DNA of 64,000 nucleotides from contig CAZWPE010000001.1 in assembly GCA_964635635.1 (NCBI GenBank), forward strand, positions 107,774 to 171,773, in the 5' to 3' direction. The notes beneath the pieces were generated by a model, which worked only from the letters and a program-made list of their open reading frames with translations, was not told where the DNA came from and ran no database searches. Below, piece by piece: positions 23 to 50,253 of the stretch. Both the position numbers and the translations under genes were made by a program. Within the stretch, counting starts at the first letter, position 1; every line of letters begins with the position of its first letter. The DNA comes from an uncultured Myxococcaceae bacterium (GTDB taxonomy: Bacteria > Myxococcota > UBA727 > JABDBI01).

Positions 23-2053
23 TTGCGTTTAAACTTTGCGCTAAGTTTTCACGCCGTGAAAGACTCTCTCAATGAAAAAGCCTATCGATTGATGTTAACT
101 TCCCGCGAGCTGGATAAGAAAATGCTTATTCTGCTGCGCCAGGGTAAAAGCTTCTTTCATATTGGTTGCATGGGTCATGAAGCTGTTCAGGCAGCAGCTT
201 CCCTAAGCTTAGACCCTAAACGAGATTATTTATTTCCCTACTATCGCGATCAAACTTTTGTTTTGGGTATGGGGATGACACCTGAAGAATGTTTGTTGGG
301 ATTCTTGGGCCGTGAAGGGGACCCGAGCTCTAATGGTCGCCAAATGCCTCAGCACTATGGACACCCCAAACTGAATATTCCGAGTAGTTCGTCATCGACG
401 GGAACGCAGTTTTTGCAGGCTGTGGGTTGTGCGTTTGCTTCCATGCGACTGGATAAGCCTAAAGACTTGGCAGTAACGGTTGTTTGTTCGGGTGATGGCA
501 CGACCAGTCAGGGAGATTTTCATGAGGCTTTAAGTTGGGCCTCGCGTGAAAAAGCGCCAGTGATATTTTTGGTTGAGAACAATGGCTACGCAATTAGTGT
601 TCCGATTGCAGACCAGCGTCCTGGGGCGCAAATTGCCGATATGCATGGAGCGTACCCAGGCTTGAGCTTTATGCGGGTTGATGGTTGCGATTTCGAAGCC
701 AGCCATGTTGTATTTCAAAAAGCTGTGGCCCATGCACGTACAGGAAAGGGACCTGTTTTAATTGATGCGAGTGTTGTGCGCTTGTTGCCACACAGTTCAT
801 CGGATGATGATAAAAAATATCGCCCAGCCAAAGATTTAGAGGCTGAAAAAAAACGTGATCCCTTACTTGTAAACAAGCATCTTGTTTCTGCAAAGCGTTT
901 GAAAGCTTTAGAACAAGAAGTGTTTGAAGAAGTTGACGCTGCGGCGGATAGAGCGCTGGCAGCACCGGTGCCTAAGAGTGAAGATGCCTTGAGTTATGTT
1001 TATTCTCAGGCTTGTCCGAAGACCTCACCCTCGGTCCCTCTCCACCCAGTGGAGAGGGAAGGGGGGGCAGAGACCGTCCTCGTCGACGCCATCAACCGTG
1101 CACTGGCCGAAGAGCTTGAACGTGCTCCAAAAGTGCTCGTTTTTGGTCAAGATGTCGCTGGTGGTAAAGGTGGCGTATTTACGGCTACTAGGGGTCTTAC
1201 AAAGCAATTTGGCGAAGACAGGTGTTTTAATGCGCCGCTGGCTGAGTCGAGTATTGTTGGTGTGGCAATTGGAATGGCTTTGCGCGGCTTTAAACCAGTA
1301 CCAGAGATTCAATTTGGCGATTATATTTGGACTGCCATGATGCAGATTCGAAATGAACTGAGTGTCATGCGTTACCGCTCAAATAACGCCTGGAAAGCAC
1401 CTGTTGTAATTCGAGTTCCTGTTGGTGGTTATATCCACGGTGGTCTTTGTCACTCCCAAAATATTGAAGCCACATTTTCGCACTTTCCAGGTCTCAAGAT
1501 TGCCTATCCGTGTACGGCACTGGATGCTTATGGGCTGCTCAAAGAAGCCATTCGAGGCGATGACCCAGTTTTGTTTTTAGAACATAAGGGCCTGTACAGA
1601 CAAAACTTTGCCAAGAGTGTGTTGCCTGCTGGAACAGATTGGACCTTGCCATTTGGGGTTGCAGCAGTTCGCCGTGCTGGCAAGGACATGACCATTGTAA
1701 CTTATGGGGCACTGGTTCAACGTTCTATCGAAGTCGCGCGTGAACTTGAGGGTGAAGTTGATATTGAAGTGATCGACTTACGTACGATTAGACCGTATGA
1801 TTTTGATTCGGTCGCTGAAAGCGTCAAAAAGACAGGCCGGGTATTGGTTTTACACGAAGATACGCGCTTTATGGGTTTTGGGGCTGAGATAGCCGCTGAA
1901 ATTTCTGAGAAATGCTTCCAATATTTGGATGCCCCCGTTACTAGGCTGGCTGGAAAAGAATCACCCATCCCATATGCAGGCAACTTAGAAGAACAAGTCT
2001 TGCCTCAGGCTTCTTGGATTCAGGATTCAGTTAGAACTTTAATGGCTTATTAG
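23..2053 (+). CDS. Fused E1 alpha/beta subunit of a TPP-dependent 2-oxoacid (pyruvate/branched-chain) dehydrogenase; true start uncertain (TTG 23, GTG 56 or ATG 92)
   Basis: N-terminal half matches the E1 alpha TPP-binding region (YRLMLTSRELDKK, GDG..ENNGYAIS); C-terminal half matches E1 beta (VLVFGQDVAGGKGGVF, PLAESSIVGVAIGMA). An in-frame stop sits immediately upstream at 20-22. Confidence 0.85.
   Translation: MRLNFALSFHAVKDSLNEKAYRLMLTSRELDKKMLILLRQGKSFFHIGCMGHEAVQAAASLSLDPKRDYLFPYYRDQTFVLGMGMTPEECLLGFLGREGDPSSNGRQMPQHYGHPKLNIPSSSSSTGTQFLQAVGCAFASMRLDKPKDLAVTVVCSGDGTTSQGDFHEALSWASREKAPVIFLVENNGYAISVPIADQRPGAQIADMHGAYPGLSFMRVDGCDFEASHVVFQKAVAHARTGKGPVLIDASVVRLLPHSSSDDDKKYRPAKDLEAEKKRDPLLVNKHLVSAKRLKALEQEVFEEVDAAADRALAAPVPKSEDALSYVYSQACPKTSPSVPLHPVEREGGAETVLVDAINRALAEELERAPKVLVFGQDVAGGKGGVFTATRGLTKQFGEDRCFNAPLAESSIVGVAIGMALRGFKPVPEIQFGDYIWTAMMQIRNELSVMRYRSNNAWKAPVVIRVPVGGYIHGGLCHSQNIEATFSHFPGLKIAYPCTALDAYGLLKEAIRGDDPVLFLEHKGLYRQNFAKSVLPAGTDWTLPFGVAAVRRAGKDMTIVTYGALVQRSIEVARELEGEVDIEVIDLRTIRPYDFDSVAESVKKTGRVLVLHEDTRFMGFGAEIAAEISEKCFQYLDAPVTRLAGKESPIPYAGNLEEQVLPQASWIQDSVRTLMAY
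1029..1072. repeat. Family-1 palindromic element copy (CCCTCTCCAC-cca-GTGGAGAGGG + G-run), in-frame inside the E1 alpha/beta linker
   Basis: Perfect 10-bp inverted repeat; near-identical to the copy at 29407-29428. Confidence 0.7.
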
Positions 2054-2235: not shown

Positions 2236-3429
2236 ATGGCTCAGGAGCTTTCTTGGAAGGATTCGTTTGTTCGCGACTATTATTTAAAGAACCGTCTATC
2301 TTTGGCGTTTTATTCGAACTGCACCTTTGCTTTTGCAGATGAGGCGGGCTGCCCGGACGCTTGCTCGCGGGCGGCAAAGCTGATCGCTGCCGTTCGCCGT
2401 CAAAGACCGCCGGTGATTACGAGCCGAATTCCCAAACTGGGACGTGATGATTTGCGACAGTCCAAGGGAGATTGGATCGTGGTGGCTTGTTTGGGGCAGT
2501 TCTATCTTTTAAAGCAGGGCGCCACTGAAAATACATTGCGTGCTTTGGTTCATGATGCGCGTTGTTCTGCTCCAGAGCCTGAAGTTGGCTGGTTAACCCT
2601 GCTCCCCAGAGATGCTTTCGCTGAAGTTTACCCGCTGCTCGGCAAGAATGTAGAGCTTATTCAAAATGCAGTTATTCTTGTGGCTCTTGATTTAGATGCG
2701 GCTCCCAAAAATGATAACGAGTTTGCTCATGCTTTAGCCAATGGGGGTTTGGGTAACCGATGGTTTGATTTGTCGCTGCAATTGATTGTCACTGGCAACG
2801 GTAGAGCAGGGGGGAATACGGAACACACTGTTTATGATTCTTTGCCAGCTGGTACTTATGTGAATTCACTGATGAGTGATGTTCCTGCCGCTAGCGAAGA
2901 CCAAGGGTATGAAAAAATTCGTTGGCCCAATGACCTTAAAATTAGCCAGGCCATTGCTGAGGCGAAAAATTTTGCAGAGGCAGAAGTTTCTAAGCGCGAA
3001 ATACATTGCGTTCGAACCAGGGCGTTTGAACGAGATGTTGATGTTCAAATGGCGATCCAGTTGGCAGCAAAAGAAATATTCGGAGCACCACAGGTCACCA
3101 GTGAAGCTCTTAGTATGGCGCATATGCCAGAGGGACGTTATGCAACCATATTTTTTGAGTCACCTGAAGATTTGCAAAATCACCGGCAAAGAATCAAATC
3201 AGCCAAACTAGGCGAACCAATTCAAGTATTACCATGTGAAATCGTCACTTCAAACGCAGGGCACCATGAACACATTCCACTCATAGGCTTCACAGATACT
3301 GACCCAAATATTGTTGGAATCTCATATATTATGAAGCCAACCGAGACAGTATTTCACATTAAAGCAGATGGAGTTCACAAAGAAAAAGCCCGGAAGTATG
3401 CTTACTTTTTGAACCAGCTGTTGAGGTAG
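2236..3429 (+). CDS. Choline/carnitine O-acyltransferase family protein (short form lacking about 150 N-terminal residues relative to eukaryotic CrAT)
   Basis: NRWFDLSLQLIVTGNGRAGGNTEHTVYDS matches the catalytic-His block NRW[FY]DKSxQ..EH of carnitine acyltransferases. Downstream blocks (DVQMAIQLA, TSEALSMAHMPEGR, IVGISY) align with the CrAT C-terminal half. Confidence 0.7.
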   Translation: MAQELSWKDSFVRDYYLKNRLSLAFYSNCTFAFADEAGCPDACSRAAKLIAAVRRQRPPVITSRIPKLGRDDLRQSKGDWIVVACLGQFYLLKQGATENTLRALVHDARCSAPEPEVGWLTLLPRDAFAEVYPLLGKNVELIQNAVILVALDLDAAPKNDNEFAHALANGGLGNRWFDLSLQLIVTGNGRAGGNTEHTVYDSLPAGTYVNSLMSDVPAASEDQGYEKIRWPNDLKISQAIAEAKNFAEAEVSKREIHCVRTRAFERDVDVQMAIQLAAKEIFGAPQVTSEALSMAHMPEGRYATIFFESPEDLQNHRQRIKSAKLGEPIQVLPCEIVTSNAGHHEHIPLIGFTDTDPNIVGISYIMKPTETVFHIKADGVHKEKARKYAYFLNQLLR

Positions 3430-4808
3430 TTATACAGTTGTTTGGAACTGTCAAACAACCATGCAGCACCTGGCATTTCTTCTCTCTCTAGAGAAATCTC
3501 TCTTTCAATGTCTTCAAGTTTACTTTGAATTGTTGGATCATTTGGGTGGAATTTCATTAGTAGATTGCGTGCCATGTCGACAGTCTTCCGTGATTCAGCA
3601 TCTAAATCTAAAAAACTCAAAAGAGTTTCTTTGACTTTTTCATCTCTAAAGAAATTAGCGGCTTCATTGCGCACATACTCAGACCTATCCTCTAGGCATT
3701 GAGCAATGGCTTGATGAATCTTGGGATCTTGAGGCTTGATGGCGGCTAAAGCCTGGATGGCGGCTTCTCTTGCTCTCGGATATTCATTGCTCAGGCATTG
3801 AGCAATGGCCTGATGAATGCCGGGAGCTTGAGGTTTGATAAAGGCTAAAGCCCGAACGGCGGCTTGCCTTGCCTCACGATTTTCACGCTGCAGCAATTGA
3901 ACAAGGAATTGATGAATCTCTTGATCTTGAAGTTTGATAGAGGTTAAAGCGTCAACGGCGGCTTGCCTTACAAACCAATTTTCATCCTCCAGGCATTGAG
4001 CAATGGCTTGACGAATCTTGGGAACTTGAGGCTTGATGGCGGCTAAAGCCTGGAGGGCGGCTTGCCTTACCTCCGCATATGGATTCTCCAGGTGTTGAGC
4101 GATGGCTTGATGAATCTTGGGATCTTGAGGGTTGATGGCTTTTAAAGCCTGAACGGCAGCTTGCCTTACACTCCAATCTTTATCCCTCAGGGATTCAACG
4201 ATGACTTGATGAATCTTGGGATCTTGAGGCTTAATCGCTTCGAAGGCACTGATGGTAGCTATGCGTATGTGTGGATTGAGATCATTCAAATACCGAGCCA
4301 TGACTTCAAGGATATCTGAATCGATTGGTTTAACCTTAGCTAATGTTTCTAGAACGTCAACTATGTCTCCTCCTGAAGAACGTTCCGATTGCAATACTTC
4401 TTTAACGAGAGTTATGACAGCAGTTTCGTTACCCTTTTCAGCTGCAGAGCACAATTCAGCAACAGCGTTATTTGGATTTTTGTTGAATAAGCGCTGCCAA
4501 GTGGCTTCTGAGTAGTGCTGAATCCCCTCTTGGAATCCTTTGGAGGTTTTAGCTTGAGTCAAGAGACTTTTTGAAGAGTCACCTGAAAATGCAGCGATAC
4601 GTGCAGTAAAAGCAGGATTTTTAAACAATTCGTTTTTAGGAGCCGCGATGGCTTCTTTCTTGGTTTCAGGTACACGCAAAGGGCTCAAAGCTGCTTCATC
4701 TCTGCTCTGTCGATATTGGTCAGGTAGTTGCTTATACTCATCGCCCTTGCGGTTTTGTTGCTGTTGGTTTTCTTGAACAGAAATTTTTCCAGTAATACCT
4801 ATCTTCAT
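3402..4808 (-). CDS. HEAT/PBS-lyase-like repeat protein
   Basis: About 6-7 tandem 33-aa units (PQDPKIHQAIAQCLE..VRQAAVQALAAIK) typical of HEAT-like repeats. Confidence 0.8.
   Translation of the reverse strand: MKIGITGKISVQENQQQQNRKGDEYKQLPDQYRQSRDEAALSPLRVPETKKEAIAAPKNELFKNPAFTARIAAFSGDSSKSLLTQAKTSKGFQEGIQHYSEATWQRLFNKNPNNAVAELCSAAEKGNETAVITLVKEVLQSERSSGGDIVDVLETLAKVKPIDSDILEVMARYLNDLNPHIRIATISAFEAIKPQDPKIHQVIVESLRDKDWSVRQAAVQALKAINPQDPKIHQAIAQHLENPYAEVRQAALQALAAIKPQVPKIRQAIAQCLEDENWFVRQAAVDALTSIKLQDQEIHQFLVQLLQRENREARQAAVRALAFIKPQAPGIHQAIAQCLSNEYPRAREAAIQALAAIKPQDPKIHQAIAQCLEDRSEYVRNEAANFFRDEKVKETLLSFLDLDAESRKTVDMARNLLMKFHPNDPTIQSKLEDIEREISLEREEMPGAAWLFDSSKQLYNYLNSWFKK
3690..4290 (-). repeat. 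Tandem 99-bp DNA repeats (about 6 copies) encoding the HEAT-like units
   Basis: Recurring caggcattgagcaatggcttgatgaatcttgggatcttgaggcttgatggcggctaaagcc.. with a period of about 99 bp. Confidence 0.75.
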
Positions 4809-4915
4809 ACTCTTATTATAGGATCAATTTTATATAACCAGCAATTTTTATGGTAAATTATGATTGCGTATAAATTAAGTGCTTACAGCATGGTTCGATT
4901 GGATTAAACCTTTGT

Positions 4916-4978
4916 TGTCATCCCGGGCCCTAGCCCGGGATCCAGAGAAACACTGGATTCCAGCTTTCGCTGGAATGA
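4916..4978. repeat. Compound palindromic element / probable terminator: outer inverted repeat ttgtcatcc..ggaatgacaa enclosing three inner hairpins
   Basis: Inner hairpins are cccgggccctagcccggg, tccagagaaacactgga and ccagctttcgctgg. The element lies immediately 3' of the minus-strand ankyrin gene. Confidence 0.5.
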
Positions 4979-4995
4979 CAAAATTGGCTCAAAAT

Positions 4996-6192
4996 TTATG
5001 AGCTGCGCTGTAGAGTGCTTCCAATGATTACAACAGGGCTTCCTTGTAGGAATTCAGTAAAATCCAGAAGCTTTGGCTCTGCCAGGTGTTTGAACTCAAA
5101 AATACACGTTTCTTCTGTTCCGAACCAATTTTCCTGATTTACCAACATAAGTTTGTAGTGGTTTTTTAGATTGCGAACTTCAACACGAAAGTGTTTTTCT
5201 TGGTGGACGATTTGAGTACCTAACACTGTTTTTAGCTTGTGTAGATTGTAGGCCAAACTCTTGGCGAAAATTTTAACTTGATTTGGGCGTTTGGCTTTAT
5301 TGAGTACAGGCGCAAAAGACATGTAGGGGTATGCGCTCGAATCAAAGCACTGAGAAAGACCTTTATAGTGAAGTCCTGATTCAGTTTCGAGTGGGGGTAA
5401 AAATCGCTTGATAATCTGCTTTTGGCGGTCTGTGAATTTTTCAAAGAGGTTTAAAACTTTCATATCATTGATGTGGTCACTCTTCAAATTTTTACACCCT
5501 TCGAAGATTTTTTTCGCAGTCATGCCATGTTTGTCTTTAAGGCAGACTAGAGCGGGTGTGATGAATGGATGCGTGAGAAATGCTTCTACCTTCTCTGAAC
5601 TGCGAATAAGAGAGGCAAGATGAAGTGCACTTTGTCCTTCATGATTGATAGCGTCAAAAATAGAAGCTGTCATGTTTGGATGATGAAGTATTTTGATGAT
5701 TTGATTTGCCGAGGCATGCAGCATGTTACGGTGTAAGATAGTTTGCCCAAATGAATCTCGCTTGAGCCAGACGTCTTTTGAAAATCCAAGTTCGTCAAGT
5801 GTTTCAATGTCAGAGCGATCTGCAACGATGTCCATTGCGGTTTGATTATTGCTGTCTTGGATACCAACCACATCTCCTGTGGCAAAAGGATGCTCAATGA
5901 GTGTTTTAAATATGGTGAGAGTAGGCAAAGCTGCTGCATAGTGAAGAACCGTTCGGTTATTGGTGTCTTTTTGGGCAAATGTTTTGGAATCAAAATGCAT
6001 CGAATCTAAAATCCGCTCCACAGGTTCAAGACGTCCTTTTGAGACAGCGATATGCAGGGGAGTTTGAAATGCGTCGTTCAACTGCGTGATTTCGTTCTTG
6101 TCAAAAGTTTCTTCATGCAGTGGTTCTGGCTCGACAATACGCCAGAAGTTAGTGGTTCGGTATCCGCAGCTTGGGAGTGGCGCTTGAAGCAT
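4996..6192 (-). CDS. Ankyrin-repeat protein with a C-terminal domain of unknown function
   Basis: Repeated ankyrin signatures TPLHIAV, TVLHYAA, TILHRNM and SALHLAS. Confidence 0.8.
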   Translation of the reverse strand: MLQAPLPSCGYRTTNFWRIVEPEPLHEETFDKNEITQLNDAFQTPLHIAVSKGRLEPVERILDSMHFDSKTFAQKDTNNRTVLHYAAALPTLTIFKTLIEHPFATGDVVGIQDSNNQTAMDIVADRSDIETLDELGFSKDVWLKRDSFGQTILHRNMLHASANQIIKILHHPNMTASIFDAINHEGQSALHLASLIRSSEKVEAFLTHPFITPALVCLKDKHGMTAKKIFEGCKNLKSDHINDMKVLNLFEKFTDRQKQIIKRFLPPLETESGLHYKGLSQCFDSSAYPYMSFAPVLNKAKRPNQVKIFAKSLAYNLHKLKTVLGTQIVHQEKHFRVEVRNLKNHYKLMLVNQENWFGTEETCIFEFKHLAEPKLLDFTEFLQGSPVVIIGSTLQRSS

Positions 6193-6425: not shown

Positions 6426-9364
6426 TGCTGCAAACTCAAATCGAAGCTTTTGGTCTTAAACTTTTTGAGGAAATGCGTGGTGAAAAACCAGGCATTTTTA
6501 ACAGCGACTACTGGCAAGGAAAATTGATGGACTGGGTCATGAAAGATCCCAGTTTTAAAATCGACATGTTTCGTTTTGTCGATGTTTTGCCTCAACTTGA
6601 AACTTCAGGCCAGATTGCTGCCCACGTTCGTGAGTACTTGCTGAAAGAAGGCCGTCAGCTCCCCGCAGTGATTAACGTAGCCCTTAAAGCGGCCGCCAGT
6701 GGTTTGACCGCTGGAATAGCTGCAACCAGCATTCGTAAAAATATCAGCGATATGGCTGAGCGATTTATTGTGGGGCGTGATGCCAAGAGTGCGCTGTCTG
6801 AACTGCAAGCTTTGCATAAACAAGGCATCGCTTTTACCGTCGATTTGCTCGGCGAGTATACCTTGAGTGATGCTGAGGCAGATGAGTACAAAAATCGCTA
6901 TCTAGATTTGATTGCCAATATTGCAGGTGAAGCTGCCAAGTGGAAACCGGATTCAGTCATCGACGCAGTCCCACGCGTGAATGTGTCTGTGAAGGTCAGT
7001 GCGCTTGACCCCCAAGTGAAGGCTGTTGACCCGAAAGGTTCGGTGGAACGTCTGAAACAACGCCTGAGACCTCTGTTTGAAATGGCCATGAAGAATGGCG
7101 TATTTTTGAACCTTGATCTTGAGCAGTGGGAAGTTCATGGCATTACTTATGACCTGTTTGAAGAACTTCTTTTGGAGCCAGAGTTTGCAAAATATCCCCA
7201 TTTTGGGATTGTGATTCAGGCTTATTTGAAAGACTCGCTGCGTGATGCAGAACGTCTTCTTGCTCTCGCCAAAAAACGAGGGACCCCAGTTGGTGTTCGT
7301 TTGGTTAAAGGCGCATACTGGGACTTCGAAGTCGTGAACGCGAAGCAAAAGGGTTTCGAATGCCCAGTGTTTACGCAAAAAGCTGACTCTGATGTGAACT
7401 ACGAGCGCATCAGCAAGTTTTTGTTGGATCACATTGAGCATTTTAGGCCAGCATTTGGAAGTCACAATCTGCGTTCCATTAGTCACGCGATTGTTTATGC
7501 GGATAGTAAAAAAATCCCAGCGACGGCTTATGAAATTCAGATGCTTTATGGAATGGCAGAGCCAGAACGTAAGATTTTACGTTCTCGTGGAAACCTGGTT
7601 CGTGTTTATGCCCCGATAGGAGAGTTGCTTCCGGGTATGGCGTATTTGGTTCGGCGTTTGCTTGAAAACACGTCGAACTCTGGATTTTTGAAGCTTTCAC
7701 ATCAAGATGATGTGGATCCGAAGTTACTTTTGGTTGAGCCTGTTTCTCTCCCTCTCCCCTTGAGGGAGAGGGCTGGGGTGAGGGGTGAGTTTGAAAACTG
7801 CCCTTGGCTAGACTTTACGCGTGAAGAATCTCGAACAGCTTTTGCCAAAGCCATTGAAGCCTGGAAGCCTAAATTTCCAGTCACAGTCCCAGTGGTTATT
7901 GCCGGTGAAAAACAGGTCGGTGAGTCCGTGTTTGAACGCGTGACTCCCAACGATGGGCAAACTTTAGTGGCTAAAGTAGAGCTGGCCAGCAAAGCACAGG
8001 CTGAAAAAGCGATTCAAATTGCCACGCGTGCTTACCCTGCATGGCGAGATGGAGCTTTGGCTGAACGTGTAGAACGTTTAAACAAACTGGCTGATATATT
8101 GGAACGCGACCGTTTTGAATTAGCTGCGCTCATGTCCCATGAAGTGGCTAAGCCGTGGATTGAAGCGGATGCAGATGTCGGCGAAGCGGTTGATTTCTGC
8201 CGCTATTATGCTCAGCAGGCGCTCACAACACTTGCGCCCAGAAAACAAGGCAGTCTTTGGGGCGAAGATAATATTTTAAGCTATGAGGGCAGGGGGCCAA
8301 CACTTGTGATTGCTCCTTGGAATTTTCCCTTGGCCATTTTGTGCGGCATGGCAGCAGCAGCTCTTGTTGCTGGTAACTCTGTGATCTTAAAACCAGCAGA
8401 AACATCCAGTTTAACAGCAAAGATGCTGTTCGACCGTATGCTCGAAGCAGGTATTCCGAGTGACGTTGTCCAGTTCTTGCCGGGCCGTGGTTCTGAAGTA
8501 GGGGCGTATTTAGTTGAGCATCCACAAATTGCGCAAATTGCATTTACGGGCAGCAAGGAAGTTGGCCTGCAAATTATCGAAAAAGCGGCGCGAGTTCAGC
8601 ATGGCCAAGCACAAGTTAAGCGTGTGGTCTGCGAAATGGGCGGTAAAAATGCGATTGTGATAGACGACGATGCAGACTTAGATGAAGCAGCATTAGGTGT
8701 TATCCACAGTGCGTTTGGTTATGCAGGTCAAAAGTGTTCGGCAGCTTCGCGAATCATTGTCCATGCCAATGTTTATGACAGGTTTAAAAACCGGTTGGTT
8801 GAAGCTTGCAAGAGTCTATGCATTGCGCCTGCCACGAAACCTGGCTGTGGTGTTCCTCCGGTGGTTGATGCCAAATCCCAAAATCGCTTGCTCACTGAGA
8901 TTGAGTTGGCTGCTCGTGAACACAAATTGCTAATAAGTATCCCCCCTTTGCAAAAGGGGGGTCAGGGGGGATTTTTTGTCCCTGTAACGCTATTTGAAGT
9001 CCAAAACTCAAAATGCCGATTGATGCAAACAGAACTCTTTGGTCCAGTAATTGCGATTGCCAAGGCCAAGGACTTTGAAGAAGCCATTCAAATCGCAAAC
9101 GATACTGAGTTTGCTTTGACGGGTGCTGTTTATTCACGCAGCCCTAAGAATCTTGAATATGCACGAAAGGCCTTTAAGGTTGGCAATCTGTATCTTAACC
9201 GTGGAAGTACGGGTGCCATGGTTCATCGACAGCCATTTGGTGGCTTCAAAATGAGCGGCATTGGAACCAAAGCGGGTGGGCCAGATTACTTGATGCACTT
9301 TGTGGACCCCAGAGTGACCACTGAGAATACTTTGAGGCGTGGATTTACGCCGGATTTGGAATGA
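6425..9364 (+). CDS. putA: Bifunctional proline dehydrogenase / delta-1-pyrroline-5-carboxylate dehydrogenase PutA (no N-terminal DNA-binding domain)
   Basis: N-terminal PRODH TIM-barrel motifs followed by an ALDH domain (VCEMGGKNA, catalytic QKCSAASR, EEFGP-like ELFGPV). Confidence 0.9.
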   Translation: MLQTQIEAFGLKLFEEMRGEKPGIFNSDYWQGKLMDWVMKDPSFKIDMFRFVDVLPQLETSGQIAAHVREYLLKEGRQLPAVINVALKAAASGLTAGIAATSIRKNISDMAERFIVGRDAKSALSELQALHKQGIAFTVDLLGEYTLSDAEADEYKNRYLDLIANIAGEAAKWKPDSVIDAVPRVNVSVKVSALDPQVKAVDPKGSVERLKQRLRPLFEMAMKNGVFLNLDLEQWEVHGITYDLFEELLLEPEFAKYPHFGIVIQAYLKDSLRDAERLLALAKKRGTPVGVRLVKGAYWDFEVVNAKQKGFECPVFTQKADSDVNYERISKFLLDHIEHFRPAFGSHNLRSISHAIVYADSKKIPATAYEIQMLYGMAEPERKILRSRGNLVRVYAPIGELLPGMAYLVRRLLENTSNSGFLKLSHQDDVDPKLLLVEPVSLPLPLRERAGVRGEFENCPWLDFTREESRTAFAKAIEAWKPKFPVTVPVVIAGEKQVGESVFERVTPNDGQTLVAKVELASKAQAEKAIQIATRAYPAWRDGALAERVERLNKLADILERDRFELAALMSHEVAKPWIEADADVGEAVDFCRYYAQQALTTLAPRKQGSLWGEDNILSYEGRGPTLVIAPWNFPLAILCGMAAAALVAGNSVILKPAETSSLTAKMLFDRMLEAGIPSDVVQFLPGRGSEVGAYLVEHPQIAQIAFTGSKEVGLQIIEKAARVQHGQAQVKRVVCEMGGKNAIVIDDDADLDEAALGVIHSAFGYAGQKCSAASRIIVHANVYDRFKNRLVEACKSLCIAPATKPGCGVPPVVDAKSQNRLLTEIELAAREHKLLISIPPLQKGGQGGFFVPVTLFEVQNSKCRLMQTELFGPVIAIAKAKDFEEAIQIANDTEFALTGAVYSRSPKNLEYARKAFKVGNLYLNRGSTGAMVHRQPFGGFKMSGIGTKAGGPDYLMHFVDPRVTTENTLRRGFTPDLE
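7746..7789. repeat. Family-1 palindromic element copy (CCCTCTCCCCTTGAGGGAGAGGGCTGGGGTGAGGGGT), in-frame in putA
   Basis: 38-bp stretch identical except for one base to 26520-26557. Confidence 0.75.
8937..8978. repeat. Family-2 palindromic element copy (ATCCCCCCTTTGCAAAAGGGGGGTCAGGGGGGATTTTTTG), in-frame in the putA ALDH domain
   Basis: About 41-bp motif shared with 44469-44507. Confidence 0.75.
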
Positions 9365-10332
9365 GCGAGTCCGAACACCTCACCCAGTTTCAGCCAAGGC
9401 TGAAACAGCCCTCTCCCCTGAAGCGGAGAGGGCAAGTCTTGGCTGGCCTTGTGGGTATTTCTCTGGTTGCATACATGGTGGGCCATATTGGTTTGGACCA
9501 AGTGCTTCATGCCCTAAGAGGCGCAGCTTATTATTTCCCTGCTATCTTATTGTGCGAGTTCTTTTTTTGGTTTTTTGGGACTCTTTCGCAGCGTGCACTC
9601 TATGGCGTTGATGCTAAAAAGATTCCGTGGGGCACGATTTGGCGTTCAGGTTTTACGGCTTACGCCATCATGGGTCTGATTCCAATGGGCCGTATTGTCG
9701 CGGAGTCAGCTCGGGCAGTAGCGTTTGCGCCTTATGTGGGCAAACCCAAGGCCGCTGTGGTAGCGGTTCAGGTTCAGATTTTGGCTTTGTGTGTGACGGC
9801 TTTAGTGGCTGGTGTATCTGGTTTATTTATTGTGACTCGTGCCTGGGGAAGCCCTGCTGCATGGCTTGCCATTGCCAATGCAGGCGGGGCATTGGTTTTG
9901 GCTGTTTTAGCAGCCATGGCAACCAAACACCTAAGATTGGGTCAAAAGCTGGGGTTCTTACTGCCCAGGATTCAGCTCTTTGGACAGGAGTTTGATGCCC
10001 ACTTTGCCGGTTCGGCAGTTTTGCCGCGTGCAGCCTTTGGTTATGAGTTGCTCTGCCGTTTAAGTCAGATTGTCCAAAATGGTTTGCTGGTCATGGCTGT
10101 AGGTGGGGCTTTGGGTATTTCGAATGCCTTTTGTTCTGAGGGCTTGCATCTGATTGGTGCGACTCTGGGTGATCTGGTTCCGGGCCAGTGGGGCGTAACT
10201 GAACTGGTTTATGGTGAAACAGGCTCTATTCTAGGTCTTGGAGACCAAGGAGCCTTAGGGATTGCCTTGCAGGCGCATTTGGCCCAGCTGTTTTGGGTGT
10301 TTGTGACTTTGTTAATGAAAGTGTTGTTGTAA
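9361..10332 (+). CDS. UPF0104 / lysylphosphatidylglycerol-synthase-TM-like integral membrane protein
   Basis: Multiple TM helices throughout. ATGA start overlap with the putA stop. Confidence 0.6.
   Translation: MSESEHLTQFQPRLKQPSPLKRRGQVLAGLVGISLVAYMVGHIGLDQVLHALRGAAYYFPAILLCEFFFWFFGTLSQRALYGVDAKKIPWGTIWRSGFTAYAIMGLIPMGRIVAESARAVAFAPYVGKPKAAVVAVQVQILALCVTALVAGVSGLFIVTRAWGSPAAWLAIANAGGALVLAVLAAMATKHLRLGQKLGFLLPRIQLFGQEFDAHFAGSAVLPRAAFGYELLCRLSQIVQNGLLVMAVGGALGISNAFCSEGLHLIGATLGDLVPGQWGVTELVYGETGSILGLGDQGALGIALQAHLAQLFWVFVTLLMKVLL
9388..9436. repeat. Family-1-like palindromic element (GCCCTCTCC-cctgaagc-GGAGAGGGC) plus adjacent hairpin tttcagccaaggctgaaa, in-frame at the N-terminus of the UPF0104 gene
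   Basis: Inverted repeats seen directly. Confidence 0.6.
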
Positions 10333-10397
10333 ATTTGAAAAACAAATAAGATTTATTTATTATATAAAAAGTTTCAGTGTCTGGTGAGGGGGATCCA

Positions 10398-12899
10398 ATG
10401 AGTCAAAGATTAGGTTTCAGTCCGGCTGAATTCAGAGAACAAGGTGACTACGAGCAAGAGGGTGAGAAACGTGTTTCGGGAAAGGATGCGGGTGTTGATG
10501 TTTATGAGGCGCCCTCTTTGCTGGAACAAGTTTCTAGAGGCTTAACTCCTCAAATTATAGAGAGTTATTTGAAAGAACCGGATGGAGAAGAAAAAACTAA
10601 GCTTCTACAAGCAATGGGCCAAAAAATAAAACCTGAGACATTGTCTAAACTGCCGCCAGAATCAGTGTCGAAACTTCATGAAATTTTTCAGAATAAGGGC
10701 AAACTCGAGGTAAGATGGGCGATCGAGGATGCGCAGTGGGAAAATGAAAAAATGTCGAGGTTTGTGATAGCCCCATACCGACGTAAACTCGATTTTGCAG
10801 ATTTAGAAGAGTATCTAAAAAAAGGAGCGAGTATTAACTTTCGACTGCCCGAAAATAATGCAAACGCAAACGACAACAGTGGCAATTTTCCGGGGATGAA
10901 CCTGATTCAGATGGCATTATCTCTAAATGATATGGATACTGTGAGTAAGCTATTTGCGAGAGGTGCTCAATTTACAGAAGAAGATGCTAATTATATGTAT
11001 CCCCAAGAATATTGGTTGGGCAATGTAAGTTTGGCCCATAGACTCTTGGAGTCTGGTTACACAGATGCTTTTATTTGGCTGATTGATCATGGGGCTAACC
11101 CTAATCAAATCATTTCAAAATATGGGGACCCTTTTGATGCATTGAGCCTAGCGCAAGCAGCTTTAAAAAAAGGCGATGTGATGGCATTTGAAAAACTCAT
11201 TGAAAAAGGTGCTGATATCAACCTGCCATTTCCCCGTACGAGTACAACAGGGGAATATGCGAATAAAACTCTTGCTCAGGTTGTCCTAGAGAGGGGGGAT
11301 ACAAACGCCCTTAGGCTTCTCCTGGAAAAAGGTGTTTCTCCTAACCAAACTTTTCCTTCTGCTTGGAATTCTGAGGCTACCTACAAAGGCATGACTCTTT
11401 TGCAGGTGGCTATGATACTAGGGCATACAGATATCGCTATGCTACTGCTCGATCATGGAGCCGATCCAGATCGAGTCTTCCCAGGGACCATTGATGAACA
11501 CCGTGATTATGCTGGCAGGACACCGATTCAGATTGCTCTGAGGCAGAACAATACGGGGCTGATTGAGAAACTCATCGAGCGTGGTGCATCAAGCAAGGGT
11601 TTAACGAGTCCGTTGACTTTTAAAGCGTTGCGTTTACCACGAGAAGATTTGGAATCGATTAAGCCATTAGAAAATGGCGATAGTATTGAACAAATTATCG
11701 AAAAATCAAAAGATAAAAAATGGATTCAAGAATTCTTTGGAGACCCAAAACCTGCCAACGAAGGAGACCAAAAACCTGTCATTGAATATGTGGACGACCA
11801 TCATTCGAAAAACGGACATACTCGCGAAGACATCATTAACGGTCTTCAGGTTTTTTTCGAAAGAATTCAGAAAAGAGAGGCTGTTCTGGGGACGCCTCCG
11901 TCAAATCAACTTAAAGAGTTAAATGCGTATTATGACAACATGTTCCATCGCTTGCAGCATATTTTTTCGTTCTTAGAACAGAAAGAGATTGCTCAAGATA
12001 TCAAACGGGCTGCTCTCGATATGATTTATGGGGGTTCTTTGGCTTGCGGTACGGCTTGGTTCAATGAGGTTAAGAGTGCCTATGAACTTCTTAAATCGCA
12101 GATTAAAGCACCCCAACAAAGTTCTGCCACAGCAGCAAGCGCTGCAGATGAAAGTTTTCAAAGTGAGTATGAGTCGATCATTGAGCAGCGCTTGTATGAA
12201 TTTAGAAGGCGTTGTTTTGAATCTGCTCTGCCCAACAACAATACGCACACCTATAACGCCTACATGCGCGAGCTGGGGGTTGAGTTTGGGGTGGCGGGAA
12301 AAAATTCAAGCTATGACGATCCAACCGTTGTTCCTATTTCAGAGTACGAAAAAGCTGTTTTCAGACACAAGGTCGAGTCTCTTTATGAGCCAAAACTTAT
12401 CATTGATTTTATATATAAAATTTCCAAAGATAAAACACAAATAGGTGAGGGGATTATCCCTGGTCTGCTTGCTGACTATGGACCTAAAGTAAGCCAAACT
12501 CAAGCTAATAGGTATTTTGTGTTGGAAAATAAGAAGGAAAAAGATGAGCTCAGTGGCGAAGAGTTGAGGGAATATGAGGAACTTACAAAAATTATCTCTC
12601 AGGAAGATGATTATACGGAGATGACGCTTGGAAAAGAATACGAGCCAACCCGAGAAGGCGTGGAATATTTGCTTAAAGCTTTAGGCATATTACGAATTAG
12701 AGACCTGAAAGGGATAAAGCTCGATCCATGGAGCCAATTCTTAATAAGACGTAAACAAAAGGAGCTCGAGTCAGCAGAGGAAGGCTCCGAAAGGCAAAGA
12801 GACCTAAAAGAATGGCTTTCAGAAGCTCAGGCTGAGCAAATTCAAGAAGTTAAGCAAACAAAGAAGGCTTCATCAGCCACAGCTGCCGCTAGTTCTTAA
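10398..12899 (+). CDS. Large ankyrin-repeat protein with an acidic, coiled-coil-rich C-terminus (effector-like); ORF opens at GTG 10377, ATG 10398 preferred
   Basis: At least five ankyrin units (GMNLIQMALSLND.., DALSLAQAALKKGD.., KTLAQVVLERGDTNALRLLLEKGVSPN, MTLLQVAMILGHTDIAMLLLDHGADPD, RTPIQIALRQNNTGLIEKLIERGA). GAGGGGGA lies upstream of the ATG. Confidence 0.75.
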   Translation: MSQRLGFSPAEFREQGDYEQEGEKRVSGKDAGVDVYEAPSLLEQVSRGLTPQIIESYLKEPDGEEKTKLLQAMGQKIKPETLSKLPPESVSKLHEIFQNKGKLEVRWAIEDAQWENEKMSRFVIAPYRRKLDFADLEEYLKKGASINFRLPENNANANDNSGNFPGMNLIQMALSLNDMDTVSKLFARGAQFTEEDANYMYPQEYWLGNVSLAHRLLESGYTDAFIWLIDHGANPNQIISKYGDPFDALSLAQAALKKGDVMAFEKLIEKGADINLPFPRTSTTGEYANKTLAQVVLERGDTNALRLLLEKGVSPNQTFPSAWNSEATYKGMTLLQVAMILGHTDIAMLLLDHGADPDRVFPGTIDEHRDYAGRTPIQIALRQNNTGLIEKLIERGASSKGLTSPLTFKALRLPREDLESIKPLENGDSIEQIIEKSKDKKWIQEFFGDPKPANEGDQKPVIEYVDDHHSKNGHTREDIINGLQVFFERIQKREAVLGTPPSNQLKELNAYYDNMFHRLQHIFSFLEQKEIAQDIKRAALDMIYGGSLACGTAWFNEVKSAYELLKSQIKAPQQSSATAASAADESFQSEYESIIEQRLYEFRRRCFESALPNNNTHTYNAYMRELGVEFGVAGKNSSYDDPTVVPISEYEKAVFRHKVESLYEPKLIIDFIYKISKDKTQIGEGIIPGLLADYGPKVSQTQANRYFVLENKKEKDELSGEELREYEELTKIISQEDDYTEMTLGKEYEPTREGVEYLLKALGILRIRDLKGIKLDPWSQFLIRRKQKELESAEEGSERQRDLKEWLSEAQAEQIQEVKQTKKASSATAAASS

Positions 12900-18834: not shown

Positions 18835-20547
18835 TCACTTCAGATCAAAGAAGTCAACGTAGTAGCCAGGTGCTTCTCCAGTATTCTTTCCAGGATTCGA
18901 ATAGCAAGTAAAGGTCGAGGTTTTATCGTCAAAAGGAAATGTGTAGGCTGTAGGACACGCCTGCTTCATGAATACCAACCAGGGTTGGATATTCGTTGCC
19001 CAAGTAGAATTAGTAGCACTGCAATTGCCTTGAGACGCAAGTACATTGGGCCAGGTGCTTAGATATGGATTGCCAGGAAATGTTGGGCAACCGCAATCGC
19101 ACGAAGTGCCGGATTGATAACACGAGTTAGGCGCAGTGCCTGTGCAGCCAAACATGTCTGAATAAGTGTAGGATGTTCCTGAGATGCTGCCGCACTGAAG
19201 TGGGGATATGTTTGATGTTCCAGGGTTTGTGCCGCATATCTGGTCAGCGCTCCAATAGGCAATAAACGTGCCACACACCTTGGCAACGGTTGAAATGCCA
19301 GTGTTTTGCGCAAGACCGCAGAGTTGTCCGCTAGCGCAATCTGAGTCTTTGCTGCATGAGCAGTATTGATTACCTGCTCCAGTAGGTGAGCCGGAAATAC
19401 AGCTTTTGTTGATGGTAGGTAAAACTTGTCGCAGCAACGTGCTTTGATTTTTGGGGGTGATGCCTGGAATCGAAGGTGTAACACTCCAGCTACAGGCACG
19501 CAGTACACCTAAAGAGTCAGCTTGTGTGAGAGCGCCCGGCGTTGCGCAGAAATAAGGGTCAGTTTGACTCTTGGTTGTTGTGGTTGAGTCAGGTTCCATG
19601 GCAATGCCAATGTTCATGCCATTGATAATACTGACGTCATAATAATCGAGGTTTGGTTGAGGGGCTGTGAATGTGAATTCTGCCAAGCTTGCAGGAGGAA
19701 CTCCACCGGTTCCAGCGTTGCAGCTTCCATCTTGTGGAGCACAGGAGCCATTGTTTGGACAGTCTTCTGCATAAGTGTGACCAGATAGAGGGGTATATCC
19801 TGGGCCGCAGTTAGTTTGAGTGCAAGCTTGACCTGAAATCTGACATTTGAAACCACCTCCATTGTTAATGCATTGATCTCCGATGGTTGTACAAGTAGAA
19901 CATCCAGCGCTATTCGTGGAGCATTCACCTGAGGCACAGTTTTGGCCATTGGAGTCGCAACCAAAGCGTGCAAACAAATTTCCACTCCATTGAACCGAGC
20001 TTAGAGCGTTTGTTTGTCTACCGTGTTTTGAAGAGGCTCCTAAGGGAGCAGGAAAACAAAGTTTCAGTGATTGAGTTGGTGAGAGTTTAGGGGTGTTGGC
20101 GCCAACCATTCTGGGTTGCTTCCAGAAACACTGAAATCCATTGCCCGCTACTGTATTGGTTGCGCATACGCCCAGTGTTCCACAACTCTGTGATGCTGCG
20201 CTGCAGCCGCAGACACCCGTTGGCCCGACCGCATCAGAGCCGGTAATTATACAGTTGTTGCCCATGTTGGCACAGTCCGTATTTTTTCGGCAGAAAAATG
20301 AACCGCTGGTCAGACCTACCCATACAGTTTGCGATGAATTGTTGGTGACAATCATGGGCCTTTCGCCAGTAGAACAAAAATCAAGCACGGGCCGATTGTC
20401 TGGTGGATTGGGATTATTTGGATTATTGGGACCACTTGGGTTATTCGGCCCACTGGGATTGCTAGGCACATTTGGATCATTGCTCTTCGAGCAACCAAGC
20501 CCAACAAGAATCAAAACAACCCAAAACAAACGCATAAAAACCCCCAT
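18835..20547 (-). CDS. Large cysteine-rich lipoprotein with a thaumatin-like C-terminal domain
   Basis: Lipobox LVGLGC. Pro/Asn-rich linker. Thaumatin family signature blocks YDVSIINGMNIGIAMEP and CPTAYTFPFDDKTSTFTC (compare CPDAYSYPQDDxTSTFTC). Confidence 0.65.
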   Translation of the reverse strand: MGVFMRLFWVVLILVGLGCSKSNDPNVPSNPSGPNNPSGPNNPNNPNPPDNRPVLDFCSTGERPMIVTNNSSQTVWVGLTSGSFFCRKNTDCANMGNNCIITGSDAVGPTGVCGCSAASQSCGTLGVCATNTVAGNGFQCFWKQPRMVGANTPKLSPTQSLKLCFPAPLGASSKHGRQTNALSSVQWSGNLFARFGCDSNGQNCASGECSTNSAGCSTCTTIGDQCINNGGGFKCQISGQACTQTNCGPGYTPLSGHTYAEDCPNNGSCAPQDGSCNAGTGGVPPASLAEFTFTAPQPNLDYYDVSIINGMNIGIAMEPDSTTTTKSQTDPYFCATPGALTQADSLGVLRACSWSVTPSIPGITPKNQSTLLRQVLPTINKSCISGSPTGAGNQYCSCSKDSDCASGQLCGLAQNTGISTVAKVCGTFIAYWSADQICGTNPGTSNISPLQCGSISGTSYTYSDMFGCTGTAPNSCYQSGTSCDCGCPTFPGNPYLSTWPNVLASQGNCSATNSTWATNIQPWLVFMKQACPTAYTFPFDDKTSTFTCYSNPGKNTGEAPGYYVDFFDLK

Positions 20548-26171: not shown

Positions 26172-26747
26172 ATGCATATGTATGGCGGCGGCGTAAATGT
26201 AAAATTGTCCAGAGATGTGATGGGGATTCAAATCCCTGATGGTAATCCTGTGACCTTGGAACAAGGCCATGAAGTTTACATTATGCAAGTTCTGGGCGGC
26301 ATGTTTACGGTTGAAACAGAATGGGGTTATTTGGCTCGGGTAGACGGTAAAGATGCTGATGCTTTAGGACAAGAAATCCCGCCGGAACGCCAAAAGCCAG
26401 ATTGGTCAAAGTTTACGACACTTGAAGATGCTGCGTGGGCCCAGCTTAGAACTTGTTATGATCCTGAAATCCCAGTCAATATTGTTGAATTAGGGCTTAT
26501 CTATAAGCTACAGCTGGCTCCCTCTCCCCTTGAGGGAGAGGGCCGGGGTGAGGGGTCCGTGTTGCACGTCGATATGACTTTAACTGCACCCGGCTGTGGA
26601 ATGGGTGAGGTTTTGCGCAATGATATTGAAACCAAATTGCTGGATATCCCTGGGGTAAAGGCTGTGGTCATCGACCTGACCTTTGACCCGCCCTGGAACT
26701 CAGAAATGATGTCTGATGCAGCTAGATTGCAGCTGGGGATGATGTAA
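26172..26747 (+). CDS. SufT-like DUF59 (MIP18 family) protein with an about 90-aa N-terminal extension and an in-frame palindromic-element insert
   Basis: C-terminal TAPGCGMG and DUF59 blocks. Located at the end of the suf cluster. Confidence 0.65.
   Translation: MHMYGGGVNVKLSRDVMGIQIPDGNPVTLEQGHEVYIMQVLGGMFTVETEWGYLARVDGKDADALGQEIPPERQKPDWSKFTTLEDAAWAQLRTCYDPEIPVNIVELGLIYKLQLAPSPLEGEGRGEGSVLHVDMTLTAPGCGMGEVLRNDIETKLLDIPGVKAVVIDLTFDPPWNSEMMSDAARLQLGMM
26517..26558. repeat. Family-1 palindromic element copy, in-frame in the SufT-like gene (encodes SPLEGEGRGEGS)
   Basis: Near-identical to the putA copy at 7746-7789. Confidence 0.75.
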
Positions 26748-28912: not shown

Positions 28913-29374
28913 ATGAGCACTTTACAAGAACGGATCGGAAACGATTGGAAAGAAGCCATGAAAGCCAGGGATCCTAAGAAAGATATCTTGGCCCTCATGA
29001 AGACCGAAATTAAAAACAAAGCCATTAACACGCGCAGTGAAGGCGGCGGAAGCACGGATCTAAGCGACAGCGCAGCGATGGATGTTCTGGTCAAAATGGC
29101 TAAGCAACGCAAAGAATCCATCGAGTCCTTCAAGGCGGGTGGTCGTCAGGATTTGGCAGACAAAGAAGCATTTGAATTGGCAACGATTGAGGCCTATTTG
29201 CCTAAAGCATTGGGTGACGATGAGCTGGAGGCTTTGGTTCGTTCAGAAGCTGCTGCCATGGGTGCTGAAGGCATGAAAGACATGGGCCGCTTGATGAAAG
29301 CCGTATTAGCCAAGGCTGCTGGTGCTGCTGACGGTAACCGTGTTCAAGTATTTGTTAAAAAAGTATTAGGGTAA
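28913..29374 (+). CDS. yqeY: GatB/YqeY domain protein
   Basis: YqeY family N-terminus (MSTLQERIGNDWKEAMKARD) and C-terminal GatB_Yqey domain. Position immediately upstream of dnaG-rpoD. Confidence 0.8.
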   Translation: MSTLQERIGNDWKEAMKARDPKKDILALMKTEIKNKAINTRSEGGGSTDLSDSAAMDVLVKMAKQRKESIESFKAGGRQDLADKEAFELATIEAYLPKALGDDELEALVRSEAAAMGAEGMKDMGRLMKAVLAKAAGAADGNRVQVFVKKVLG

Positions 29375-29403
29375 TTTAAACCTACGCGAGGCAATGGCCC
29401 TCT

Positions 29404-29452
29404 CCACGAGTGGAGAGGGTGCTGAGCGTAGCGAAGCGGGTGAGGGATGAAA
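29404..29452. repeat. Family-1 palindromic element copy, intergenic upstream of dnaG
   Basis: CCCTCTCCAC-ga-GTGGAGAGGG followed by a ..GGGTGAGGG tail. Confidence 0.7.
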
Positions 29453-43841: not shown

Positions 43842-44062
43842 ATCGTAACAATGTGACCACGGGTGAGTACGTGCTGGGCTTTGAGTTTTGTCACCCAGTC
43901 GTTTTGCTCTAAGAGCTCGAGCGCGGACTCCAAAAATTTGATTTTAACAAGCTCATGAGCTTCGAGGGCAGCGTCAATCTCTTTGAGAATGCTATCTGTA
44001 ATTCCGTTTTTACCAACCAAAACAATTGGTTTTAAATGATGTGCCTGAGCTTTTAAATCCAC
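43736..44062 (-). CDS. yhbY: YhbY/CRS1 (CRM-domain) RNA-binding protein
   Basis: HHLKPIVLVGKNGITDSILKEIDAALEAHELVKIK matches YhbY. The 3' end overlaps the TSUP gene convergently. Confidence 0.7.
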   Translation of the reverse strand: MDLKAQAHHLKPIVLVGKNGITDSILKEIDAALEAHELVKIKFLESALELLEQNDWVTKLKAQHVLTRGHIVTIYRERKRRTETKSKKPAKSLVKTRTGKKTARRAPR

Positions 44063-44100
44063 ACTGTACGAATAGGATACTTTTTAGTAGCTTGCAATGT

Positions 44101-50209: not shown

Positions 50210-50252
50210 CCTATAACCCTCTCCCTCTGGGAGAGGGCAGGGAGAGGGATAG
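50210..50252. repeat. Family-1-like GA/CT palindromic element, intergenic, immediately upstream of a terminator
   Basis: CCCTCTCCCTCTGGGAGAGGGCAGGGAGAGGG. Confidence 0.6.
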
Positions 50253-50253
50253 A

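Follow-up and report, generated by a model that had tools for sequence, protein, structure and literature searches.

Palindromes in a fused E1 gene and in the yqeY-dnaG spacer of a Myxococcaceae genome are probable hairpins of BoxC/PIT/TM_ECO triplex motifs

The gene for a fused 2-oxoacid dehydrogenase E1 on a Myxococcaceae metagenome-assembled genome (MAG) contig (CAZWPE010000001.1) carries a palindrome, CCCTCTCCAC-cca-GTGGAGAGGG, in the linker between its alpha and beta halves, and the same arms recur in the intergenic spacer between yqeY and dnaG. This raised the question of what these palindromes are, how one of them came to lie inside a protein, and whether it supplied the linker that joins two ancestrally separate subunits, as had been suggested in an original prediction made from the sequence of this locus. 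We analysed one 64-kb stretch of the contig, hereafter the window, to which our motif census is confined, together with relatives and more distant genomes. Both palindromes are most likely the hairpins of complete intrastrand triplex motifs of the BoxC/PIT/TM_ECO family, which would have spread by insertion or short-patch replacement. The E1 copy appears to have landed in, and partly replaced, a linker that already existed, which leaves the view on the origin of fused E1 enzymes unchanged.

The E1 open reading frame (ORF) spans positions 23..2053 (676 amino acids). The palindrome lies in frame at 1036-1058, where it encodes ..SPSVPLHPVEREGG.., and falls as originally described between the two halves of the enzyme, represented by the Pfam domains E1_dh (amino acids 21-318) and Transket_pyr (amino acids 355-526). 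What had been overlooked is that each palindrome is merely the hairpin of a longer unit with a G-rich third strand. Read on the minus strand, the whole E1 motif is TCCCTCTCCAC-tgg-GTGGAGAGGGA-ccg-AGGGTGAGG, corresponding to plus-strand positions 1023-1059 (the minus-strand 37-mer spanning it is TCCCTCTCCACTGGGTGGAGAGGGACCGAGGGTGAGG). Its hairpin, TCCCTCTCCAC-tgg-GTGGAGAGGGA at 1035..1059, has 11-bp palindromic arms and encodes VPLHPVERE in frame. This is followed by a 3-nt second loop (1032..1034, CCG on the minus strand), as in the published TM_ECO pattern, and then by the third strand at 1023..1031, which reads AGGGTGAGG on the minus strand (CCTCACCCT on the plus strand) and makes 9 of 9 canonical triads. 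The triads counted were G*G-C, T*A-T and A*A-T, scored against the reversed purine arm with G facing G and either A or T facing A.

The second palindrome, CCCTCTCCAC-ga-GTGGAGAGGG, does lie between yqeY (28913-29374, stop codon at 29372-29374) and dnaG (29447-31060, ATG at 29447), but at 29398-29419 and not at 29407-29428, nine positions away, as had been given. The whole motif there, on the plus strand, is CCCTCTCCAC-ga-GTGGAGAGGG-(18 nt)-GGGTGAGG at 29398-29445. After the hairpin (29398..29419, from motif scan and folding), a long second loop of 18 nt, TGCTGAGCGTAGCGAAGC (29420..29437), leads to the third strand GGGTGAGG at 29438..29445, which makes 8 of 8 canonical triads and ends one base before the dnaG ATG. 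The two copies therefore differ in orientation, which is opposite, and in their second loop, 3 nt against 18 nt. Folding was run with nearest-neighbour hairpin models for DNA and RNA. The 56-nt E1 copy folds as RNA at -32.2 kcal/mol (z -2.8), and the E1 hairpin as DNA has z-scores of -1.8 on the minus strand and -2.9 on the plus strand. In the RNA fold of the yqeY-dnaG spacer the flanks CTACGC and GCGTAG pair around the hairpin, at -39.9 kcal/mol (z -3.8). Neither copy is an assembly artefact, since an independent Logan assembly (SRR16481186) reproduces the intergenic copy base for base (L128) and encodes an E1 identical to that of the window across the linker, compared as protein (L155).

Repeats of the BoxC/PIT/TM type were already known in the 1990s. 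In Holder et al. 2015 (PMC4666352) the motif is followed from its first name, BoxC, through PIT, which stands for potential intrastrand triplex and is the name used by Hoyne and Maher (that paper cites Hoyne et al. 2000 and Hoyne & Maher 2002), to TM_ECO, which is given the pattern CCCTCNCCC-N3-6-GGGNGAGGG-N3-GGGNGAGGG. According to circular dichroism (CD) and nuclear magnetic resonance (NMR), the isolated TM_ECO strand adopts a stable triplex of class II (purine motif). Escherichia coli K-12 has 23 copies, described as 'always intergenic' and with no transposase or mobility genes nearby, and the published census covers 262 proteobacterial genomes (PMC4666352). The E. coli sequences in Table 1 of that paper are near-identical to the motifs of our window, and two window copies, at 7750-7784 and 26520-26554, match the strict TM_ECO pattern exactly. 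A 56-nt query around the first of these found matches of 83-89% identity in 4968 of the 5426 complete E. coli genomes, and the listed places of these matches had no annotated feature beneath them.

The E1 and intergenic copies both contain the arms CCCTCTCC and GGAGAGGG, but with A at position 9 (T in the purine arm), which the strict pattern does not allow, and in both the G-rich block described above can form triads antiparallel to the purine arm. If CAC/GTG is counted as loop, loop 1 is 7 nt in the E1 copy and 6 nt in the intergenic one; loop 2 is short in E1, 18 nt in the intergenic copy and 23 nt in a third copy at 9378-9432. The motif is also dispersed and multi-copy. The arm CCCTCTCC is present 13 times in the window, where 1.41 occurrences would be expected, and 0 of 100 shuffles reached that count. 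Nine collapsed seeds, representing eight distinct motifs, have a complete hairpin and third strand in 64 kb, where first-order Markov simulations (n=200) gave 0.01 on average and at most 1. The third strand is perfect (8/8 or 9/9 triads) in all six CCCTCTCC copies, and the two CAC/GTG-extended hairpins were rightly assigned to the CCCTCTCC/GGAGAGGG repeat. Scanning the whole window with Rfam at gathering thresholds returned one tRNA alone, with no match at the elements.

The window also departs from E. coli in location. The E1 copy and five other motifs, 6 of the 8 distinct ones, sit in frame within ORFs and have continuing domain sequence to either side. As about 95% of the window is coding, estimated from maximal ORFs, this represents only a mild depletion from coding sequence. 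We conclude that intergenic restriction is a property of the E. coli copies and not part of the structural definition.

The CAC/GTG form itself is widespread. When 185,579 species genomes were scanned for CCCTCTCCAC-N1-8-GTGGAGAGGG, the hairpin turned up in at least 119 stretches of genome, where by our own estimate chance would give a few. These stretches belong to Chloroflexota, Gemmatimonadota, Bacteroidota, Acidobacteriota, Patescibacteria, Zixibacteria, Myxococcota and other groups. Among the full-flank copies listed, 113 of 128 (88%) are accompanied, within 30 nt to one side or both, by a perfect 8-triad third strand, compared with 1.6% of shuffled flanks, and the third strands in the copies listed are GGGTGAGG 121 times and GGGAGAGG 11 times. 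Long second loops resembling that of the window recur in other phyla, as GAGCGCAGCGAG-type loops. Because 88% of the copies carry the third strand, we regard the CAC/GTG form as a variant within one family and not as a separate element. The notion of a 'second subfamily' holds in so far as the two copies share this hairpin, but what they share is a hairpin variant of one published family.

The CAC/GTG hairpin is also present on 25 IMG/VR contigs. On one of them (L150, IMGVR_UViG_3300041809_003254) six complete motifs run head-to-tail at 4342-4651, with a 57-bp period, to the contig end; its units are near-identical, which makes it a tandem repeat instead of a CRISPR array. In six Thermoanaerobaculia/Acidobacteria MAGs (L019, L030, L031, L057, L080 and L081) the hairpin occurs as inverted pairs 57-80 bp apart, mostly about 77-80, with the third strands pointing outward and the longer flanks forming inverted repeats, a composite of about 150 bp that resembles a REPIN or a miniature inverted-repeat transposable element (MITE).

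How the repeat reaches its sites can be seen by comparison with relatives. In L126 (GCA_040384225.1) and L127 (GCA_023248545.1) the TAA of yqeY is followed directly by the GTG of dnaG, with no spacer. Since the yqeY stop abuts the dnaG start in both, the 72-bp spacer of the window (29375..29446, plus strand), which holds the complete intergenic element and has no counterpart in these two relatives, is an insertion; no target-site duplication is visible at its boundaries. Further sites can be compared with a close relative, L129 (GCA_964484075.1), which has 81% nucleotide identity to the window and a PutA 94% identical in amino acids. The copy at 7750..7784 (plus strand; motif scan, pattern match and Pfam), in frame in the inter-domain linker of PutA (LPLPLRERAGVRG), is absent from L129, where 39 unrelated nucleotides stand in place of the window's 45, a net difference of +2 amino acids. 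Also absent from L129 is the copy at 9378..9432 (minus strand; motif scan), which is read in frame as part of the N-terminal tail of an LPG_synthase_TM protein and has its own hairpin within its 23-nt second loop; the window carries a 63-nt insertion there. The copy at 26520..26554 (plus strand; motif scan and pattern match), in frame in a loop of a DUF59/FeS_assembly_P protein (PSPLEGEGRGEG), adds 11 amino acids relative to PDB 2cu6 and about 6 relative to closer two-domain homologs. These filled and empty sites at yqeY-dnaG, PutA, LPG_synthase_TM and DUF59 back the earlier proposal that the element inserts largely irrespective of context. The coding copies lie in both orientations and in different frames, and by inspection 5 of the 6 reading frames of the motif consensus are open, the closed one reading TGA within GGGTGAGG.

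The dnaG start differs between these genomes, being ATG in the window and GTG in L126 and L127, which lack the insertion, and GGGTGAGGG immediately precedes the start (29438-29449). It is possible that the insertion may have reshaped translation initiation of dnaG. We considered a Shine-Dalgarno role for this purine-rich third strand but do not claim it, as the spacing is too short.

Two perfect motifs of a second family, CCCCCCTTT-nnn-AAAGGGGGG-nn(n)-GGGGGGA(TT), were found at 8941-8971 and 44473-44502. Both are in frame, the first in PutA and the second in a CN_hydrolase ORF (44026-44847), and encode IPP(L/F)xxGGQGGF. The PutA motif adds 4 amino acids relative to all other PutA homologs and is kept in L129 with one loop base changed.

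Taken together, we propose that on one strand the pyrimidine arm CCCTCTCC would pair with the purine arm GGAGAGGG, and that the G-rich GGGTGAGG would bind the purine arm in antiparallel orientation, forming G*G-C, T*A-T and A*A-T triads. The triplex fold has been demonstrated in vitro on E. coli copies (PMC4666352); for the E1 and intergenic copies it is predicted from sequence. The repeat would have multiplied in this lineage, arriving as 35-72-bp cassettes by insertion or by short-patch replacement. Copying from one copy to another may be linked to replication or repair, for example through template switching or gene conversion on single-stranded DNA, with no enzyme of its own. No transposase lies nearby. 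Coding copies may survive because the open frames encode Pro/Leu/Ser and then Gly/Glu/Arg, which would be tolerated in inter-domain linkers and surface loops, while the yqeY-dnaG copy would be a clean insertion between formerly abutting genes.

Several observations weigh against this reading. The strict TM_ECO pattern fails for both the E1 and the intergenic copy, and because position 9 is an A-T pair in the wrong polarity the CAC/GTG part of both would be duplex only. The 18-nt second loop of the intergenic copy is beyond the limits of both published searches, which according to the account in PMC4666352 were 0-10 nt (Hoyne et al.) and 1-6 nt (ITxF). In the case of the E. coli copies the triplex was not detected in double-stranded DNA or in vivo (PMC4666352). 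The census rests on one 64-kb window rather than on a whole genome. The length of the coding copies is also an issue. A 31-37-nt cassette would add 10-12 amino acids, but the PutA linker gains 2, the second-family PutA loop 4 and E1 about 4-6, and with gains in these three coding copies that fall short of the element's own length, simple insertion does not account for everything. Such small gains would point to replacement of a patch or to a deletion after insertion, and there is a small chance that the copies arose in situ from Pro..Gly-rich loops. Finally, the nucleotide conservation of the E1 copy, described below, could reflect a selected function instead of tolerated selfish DNA.

The explanation that best survives besides insertion or patch replacement without an enzyme is that the repeat is a REP- or MITE-like non-autonomous element, whose folded single strand is moved in trans by a RAYT or an IS200/IS605-type tyrosine transposase. 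The filled and empty sites between relatives and the multi-copy nature of the repeat would both be expected of such an element, and its layout, in which a conserved motif stands a fixed short distance from the hairpin, is reminiscent of REP and IS200/IS605 ends. The inverted pairs about 77 bp apart and long double-tailed palindromes in other phyla, and the hairpins on IMG/VR contigs with their 57-bp tandem array, point the same way. However, the yqeY/dnaG and LPG_synthase_TM insertions have no terminal inverted repeats, target-site duplication or IS-like ends, and no transposase, integrase or Y1_Tnp domain was found among the 59 ORFs of the window, just as no mobility genes lie near the E. coli copies (Holder et al., PMC4666352). 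The repeat is near-identical across many phyla, unlike REPs, which are generally known to be species-specific, and three coding copies replaced sequence instead of simply adding to it. Movement by a trans-acting transposase is therefore somewhat unlikely in our judgement, albeit a serious candidate.

The history of the E1 copy among orthologs raises a different possibility. The E1 of L001 and L002 has 85% amino acid and 74% nucleotide identity to the window, and the longest identical run between the window and L001 across the whole gene, 45 nt at 1022-1066, is the element, with the hairpin at its centre. Codons inside the element are identical in 13 of 13 cases (L001), against 42% for identical residues elsewhere (P about 1e-5). 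L006 has the copy in the same orientation, with CCT for CCA in loop 1 and one change in loop 2, and its outermost triad is changed from T-A*A to C-G*G at all three positions. In L004 the innermost pair has changed from C-G to G-C, a compensatory change, while the remainder is partly decayed. L003 has the same hairpin in the same frame with a TTG loop; the upstream CCTCACCC block is absent and a perfect G-rich block stands downstream. We considered this flip of orientation (GGGGGG-GCA-GGGGGAGAGG) as an independent insertion but do not claim it, because the sister L004 has no such block and the bases are Gly/Glu codons of a conserved ..GG.E... Across the five E1 orthologous sequences, a small sample, pairing is kept in 98% of stem cells and both partners have changed in two pairs, and the hairpin loop varies (CCA, CCT, TTG, GTT) with the stem retained. 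The copy is maintained at the nucleotide level in several genomes.

Other orthologs have something else at this site. L005 has a decayed motif in the linker. In L156 (protein P0004, 489-2441) the linker carries a different 70-nt palindrome, GTCATTGCGAG..CTCGCAATGAC (GTCATTGCGAGCGAAG...CCTCCTCGCAATGAC), in frame as RHCERSEAIQDSWIATSAMPPRNDE, and the 123-nt linker stretch containing it folds as RNA at -43.7 kcal/mol. P0007 has an MGAQGDS tandem repeat, and P0008 (77% identical) has PDPPFLKEGDGTGG, of the same length at the protein level. Given that orthologs hold a decayed motif, another palindrome or a tandem repeat, the E1 linker would seem to be a permissive site that has been colonised repeatedly.

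It is possible to read the E1 copy, and perhaps other linker copies, as an mRNA or DNA structure under purifying selection, either pausing ribosomes or polymerases between the alpha and beta modules, which would help folding, or serving as a binding site. The 45-nt identical run with its unchanged codons, the three-position triad change in L006, the compensatory change in L004, the varying loop on a preserved stem and the stable RNA hairpin all fit such a role. In addition, 22-kb samples of L001, L004, L126 and L127 contain 0-1 motifs each, the sole one being the E1 copy of L001, and the short contigs L003 and L006 also have the E1 copy. Yet distant fused E1 genes work without the element, the motif is decayed or replaced in L004, L005 and L156, and other copies are gained and lost between close relatives. 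Gene conversion by other copies could also give conservation in what are only five orthologous sequences. Moreover PIT in E. coli, in the account given in PMC4666352, has neither promoter nor terminator activity and no effect on polymerase in vivo. Selection on the structure in this broad sense appears unlikely to us. The more specific proposal, that the E1-linker triplex motif is kept as a structure between protein modules, for example as a co-translational or transcriptional pause, and that coding triplex motifs form a functional class in this lineage, is based on the identity across 74%-identical orthologs, the loop variation with the stem kept and the one coordinated triad change; we consider it quite unlikely.

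Could the palindromes instead be a by-product of coding for Pro..Gly-rich linkers, in which CCN and GGN codons are reverse complements, arising by chance or convergence? The ancestral loops were already P..P...G.G-like, with PEPPLVDPVLPEGG against PSVPLHPVEREGG in E1 and TPSPEGDGSADV against APSPLEGEGRGEG in DUF59, and the net length changes are small. But the 10-bp arms, third strand and loop spacing are identical to those of copies in unrelated phyla, and the flank cctcaccctcggt recurs in L081. Chance would give 0.01 motifs, 48 distant E1 linkers have no such palindrome, and the identical unit stands in a non-coding spacer that is absent from relatives. Such an origin is very improbable.

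The suggestion that the element supplied the E1 linker can be answered from the wider family. The 120 best E1 homologs are all fused, and more than 100 fused homologs at 60-69% identity share a conserved linker, ..S-E-E-PEPALVEP-x-V-x-GDG-(I/V)VLVDAIN, which is 18-20 residues long, compared with 24 in the window, and has no PLH/VER signature. At the DNA level CCCTCTCC/GGAGAGGG is absent from the linker of all 48 distant metagenomic fused E1 genes examined, which came from a protein-guided scan that yielded only distant genes (52-69% identity) and in which the longest inverted repeats are mostly 4-5 bp, and a metagenome scan for further E1 orthologs with the hairpin in the linker gave zero matches. 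The element is confined to the closest E1 clade (at least 79% identity); in the more distant fused homologs the linker is not this element. Because distant fused genes lack it in a linker of similar length, the fusion predates the element. Although the element sits exactly between E1_dh and Transket_pyr and its peptide is linker-like, the idea that it fused ancestrally separate alpha and beta genes is hardly credible, given an element-free linker of similar length in more than 100 fused homologs down to about 60% identity and in the 48 metagenomic genes, and it is refuted in the form first proposed.

The remaining member of the family in the window is intergenic, CCCTCTCCC-tct-GGGAGAGGG-ca-GGGAGAGGG at 50217..50248 (plus strand; motif scan). 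It lies after a Lys-rich histone-like ORF (49585-50199, 204 amino acids, Lys/Ala-rich, no Pfam match), and a terminator-like hairpin with a T-run, CCCCCGGGGGATTATTACCCGGGGTTTTTATTT, follows directly at 50249-50290. This ORF had first made us suspect a Chlamydia-like source for the DNA, which is not supported: the nearest MAGs carry the NCBI labels Myxococcota or Myxococcaceae, and the best solved PutA match is PDB 5ur2. An 840-amino acid ankyrin-repeat ORF at 10377-12899 lies between the LPG_synthase_TM gene and rpmB (L28); as these two genes are adjacent in L129, the ORF is a lineage-specific insertion. Eukaryote-like domains are encoded at 2236-6192, 18835-20547, 47604-48752 and 53305-54486 (carnitine/choline acyltransferase, HEAT, ankyrin, thaumatin, pepsin-like aspartyl protease and Rsm22), and this richness suggests a host-associated lifestyle for the Myxococcota-labelled MAG. 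The CN_hydrolase (44026-44847) and NAD_synthase (44835-45650) domains fall in separate ORFs with a 13-nt overlap. Glutamine-dependent NAD synthetase is as a rule a single polypeptide; the arrangement here may be due to a frameshift or a sequencing error, or the gene may be truly split.

Our analysis goes beyond the published description of the family in the in-frame coding copies, the duplex-extended hairpin, the variants with a long loop, the occurrence in many phyla and on viral contigs, and the nucleotide-level maintenance of the E1 copy, including a three-position triad change. The lineage offers clean material on the origin, spread and function of the BoxC/PIT/TM repeat. Useful cases are the inserted 72-bp unit, whose flanking genes abut in relatives, copies found in only one of two genomes that are about 81% identical, copies that took the place of coding sequence instead of lengthening it, and a copy retained base for base in an essential-type enzyme gene. 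That the repeat can live in frame in proteins was not seen in the E. coli work, and it bears on ideas of how linkers and loops acquire new sequence. The peptides PLHPVEREGG, PLPLRERAGVRG and PSPLEGEGRGEG are repeat-derived and should therefore not be taken as family signatures in annotation.

It is instructive to compare this element with other known systems. Rickettsia palindromic elements (RPEs), reportedly described by Ogata et al. in 2000, are said to be 100-150 bp long and to lie in frame in protein genes. The likeness is that of palindromic repeats in frame in genes, tolerated, in RPEs as generally known, as extra surface peptides. As far as is generally known, RPEs are restricted to Rickettsia, are unrelated in sequence and have no triplex third strand, whereas the units here measure 35-72 bp and are found in many phyla, so that the resemblance is one of behaviour only. 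REPs and REPINs are likewise short (20-40 bp), GC-rich, multi-copy palindromes, sometimes in inverted pairs, with a conserved motif beside the hairpin (Di Nocera et al. 2013, PMC3733652, and otherwise general knowledge). By contrast with our copies, REPs are generally known to have GTAG or CGTC tags, to be extragenic and species-specific and to co-occur with a RAYT gene. We found no conserved GTAG/CGTC tag among the copies and no Y1_Tnp/RAYT in the 59 window ORFs; the GTAG in the intergenic hairpin flanks, CTACGC..GCGTAG, was considered as a REP-type tag and rejected because other phyla have GCAG at that place. As for MITEs, the yqeY/dnaG and LPG_synthase_TM boundaries show neither duplication nor IS-like ends.

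G-quadruplex-forming repeats are comparable in that the G-rich strand of the strict TM_ECO-type copies has four G-runs (for example GGGAGAGGGCTGGGGTGAGGGG at 7764-7785). The E1 copy, however, has just two G3 runs, a conserved pyrimidine arm would be unnecessary for a quadruplex, and published CD and NMR assign a triplex to the BoxC/PIT/TM_ECO family (PMC4666352). Compared with that family itself, the copies here differ in that 6 of 8 motifs are in frame whereas those of E. coli are reported as always intergenic, in that the E1 and intergenic copies swap inner triads for a duplex-only CAC/GTG extension, in the one 18-nt second loop outside published limits, and in a host that is a Myxococcota-labelled MAG where the published census was proteobacterial. 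What they have in common is the order of blocks, CCCTCTCC(C), loop, (G)GGAGAGGG, loop and GGGTGAGG(G), with class II purine-motif triads, and a dispersed, multi-copy repeat without associated mobility genes that is gained and lost between relatives.

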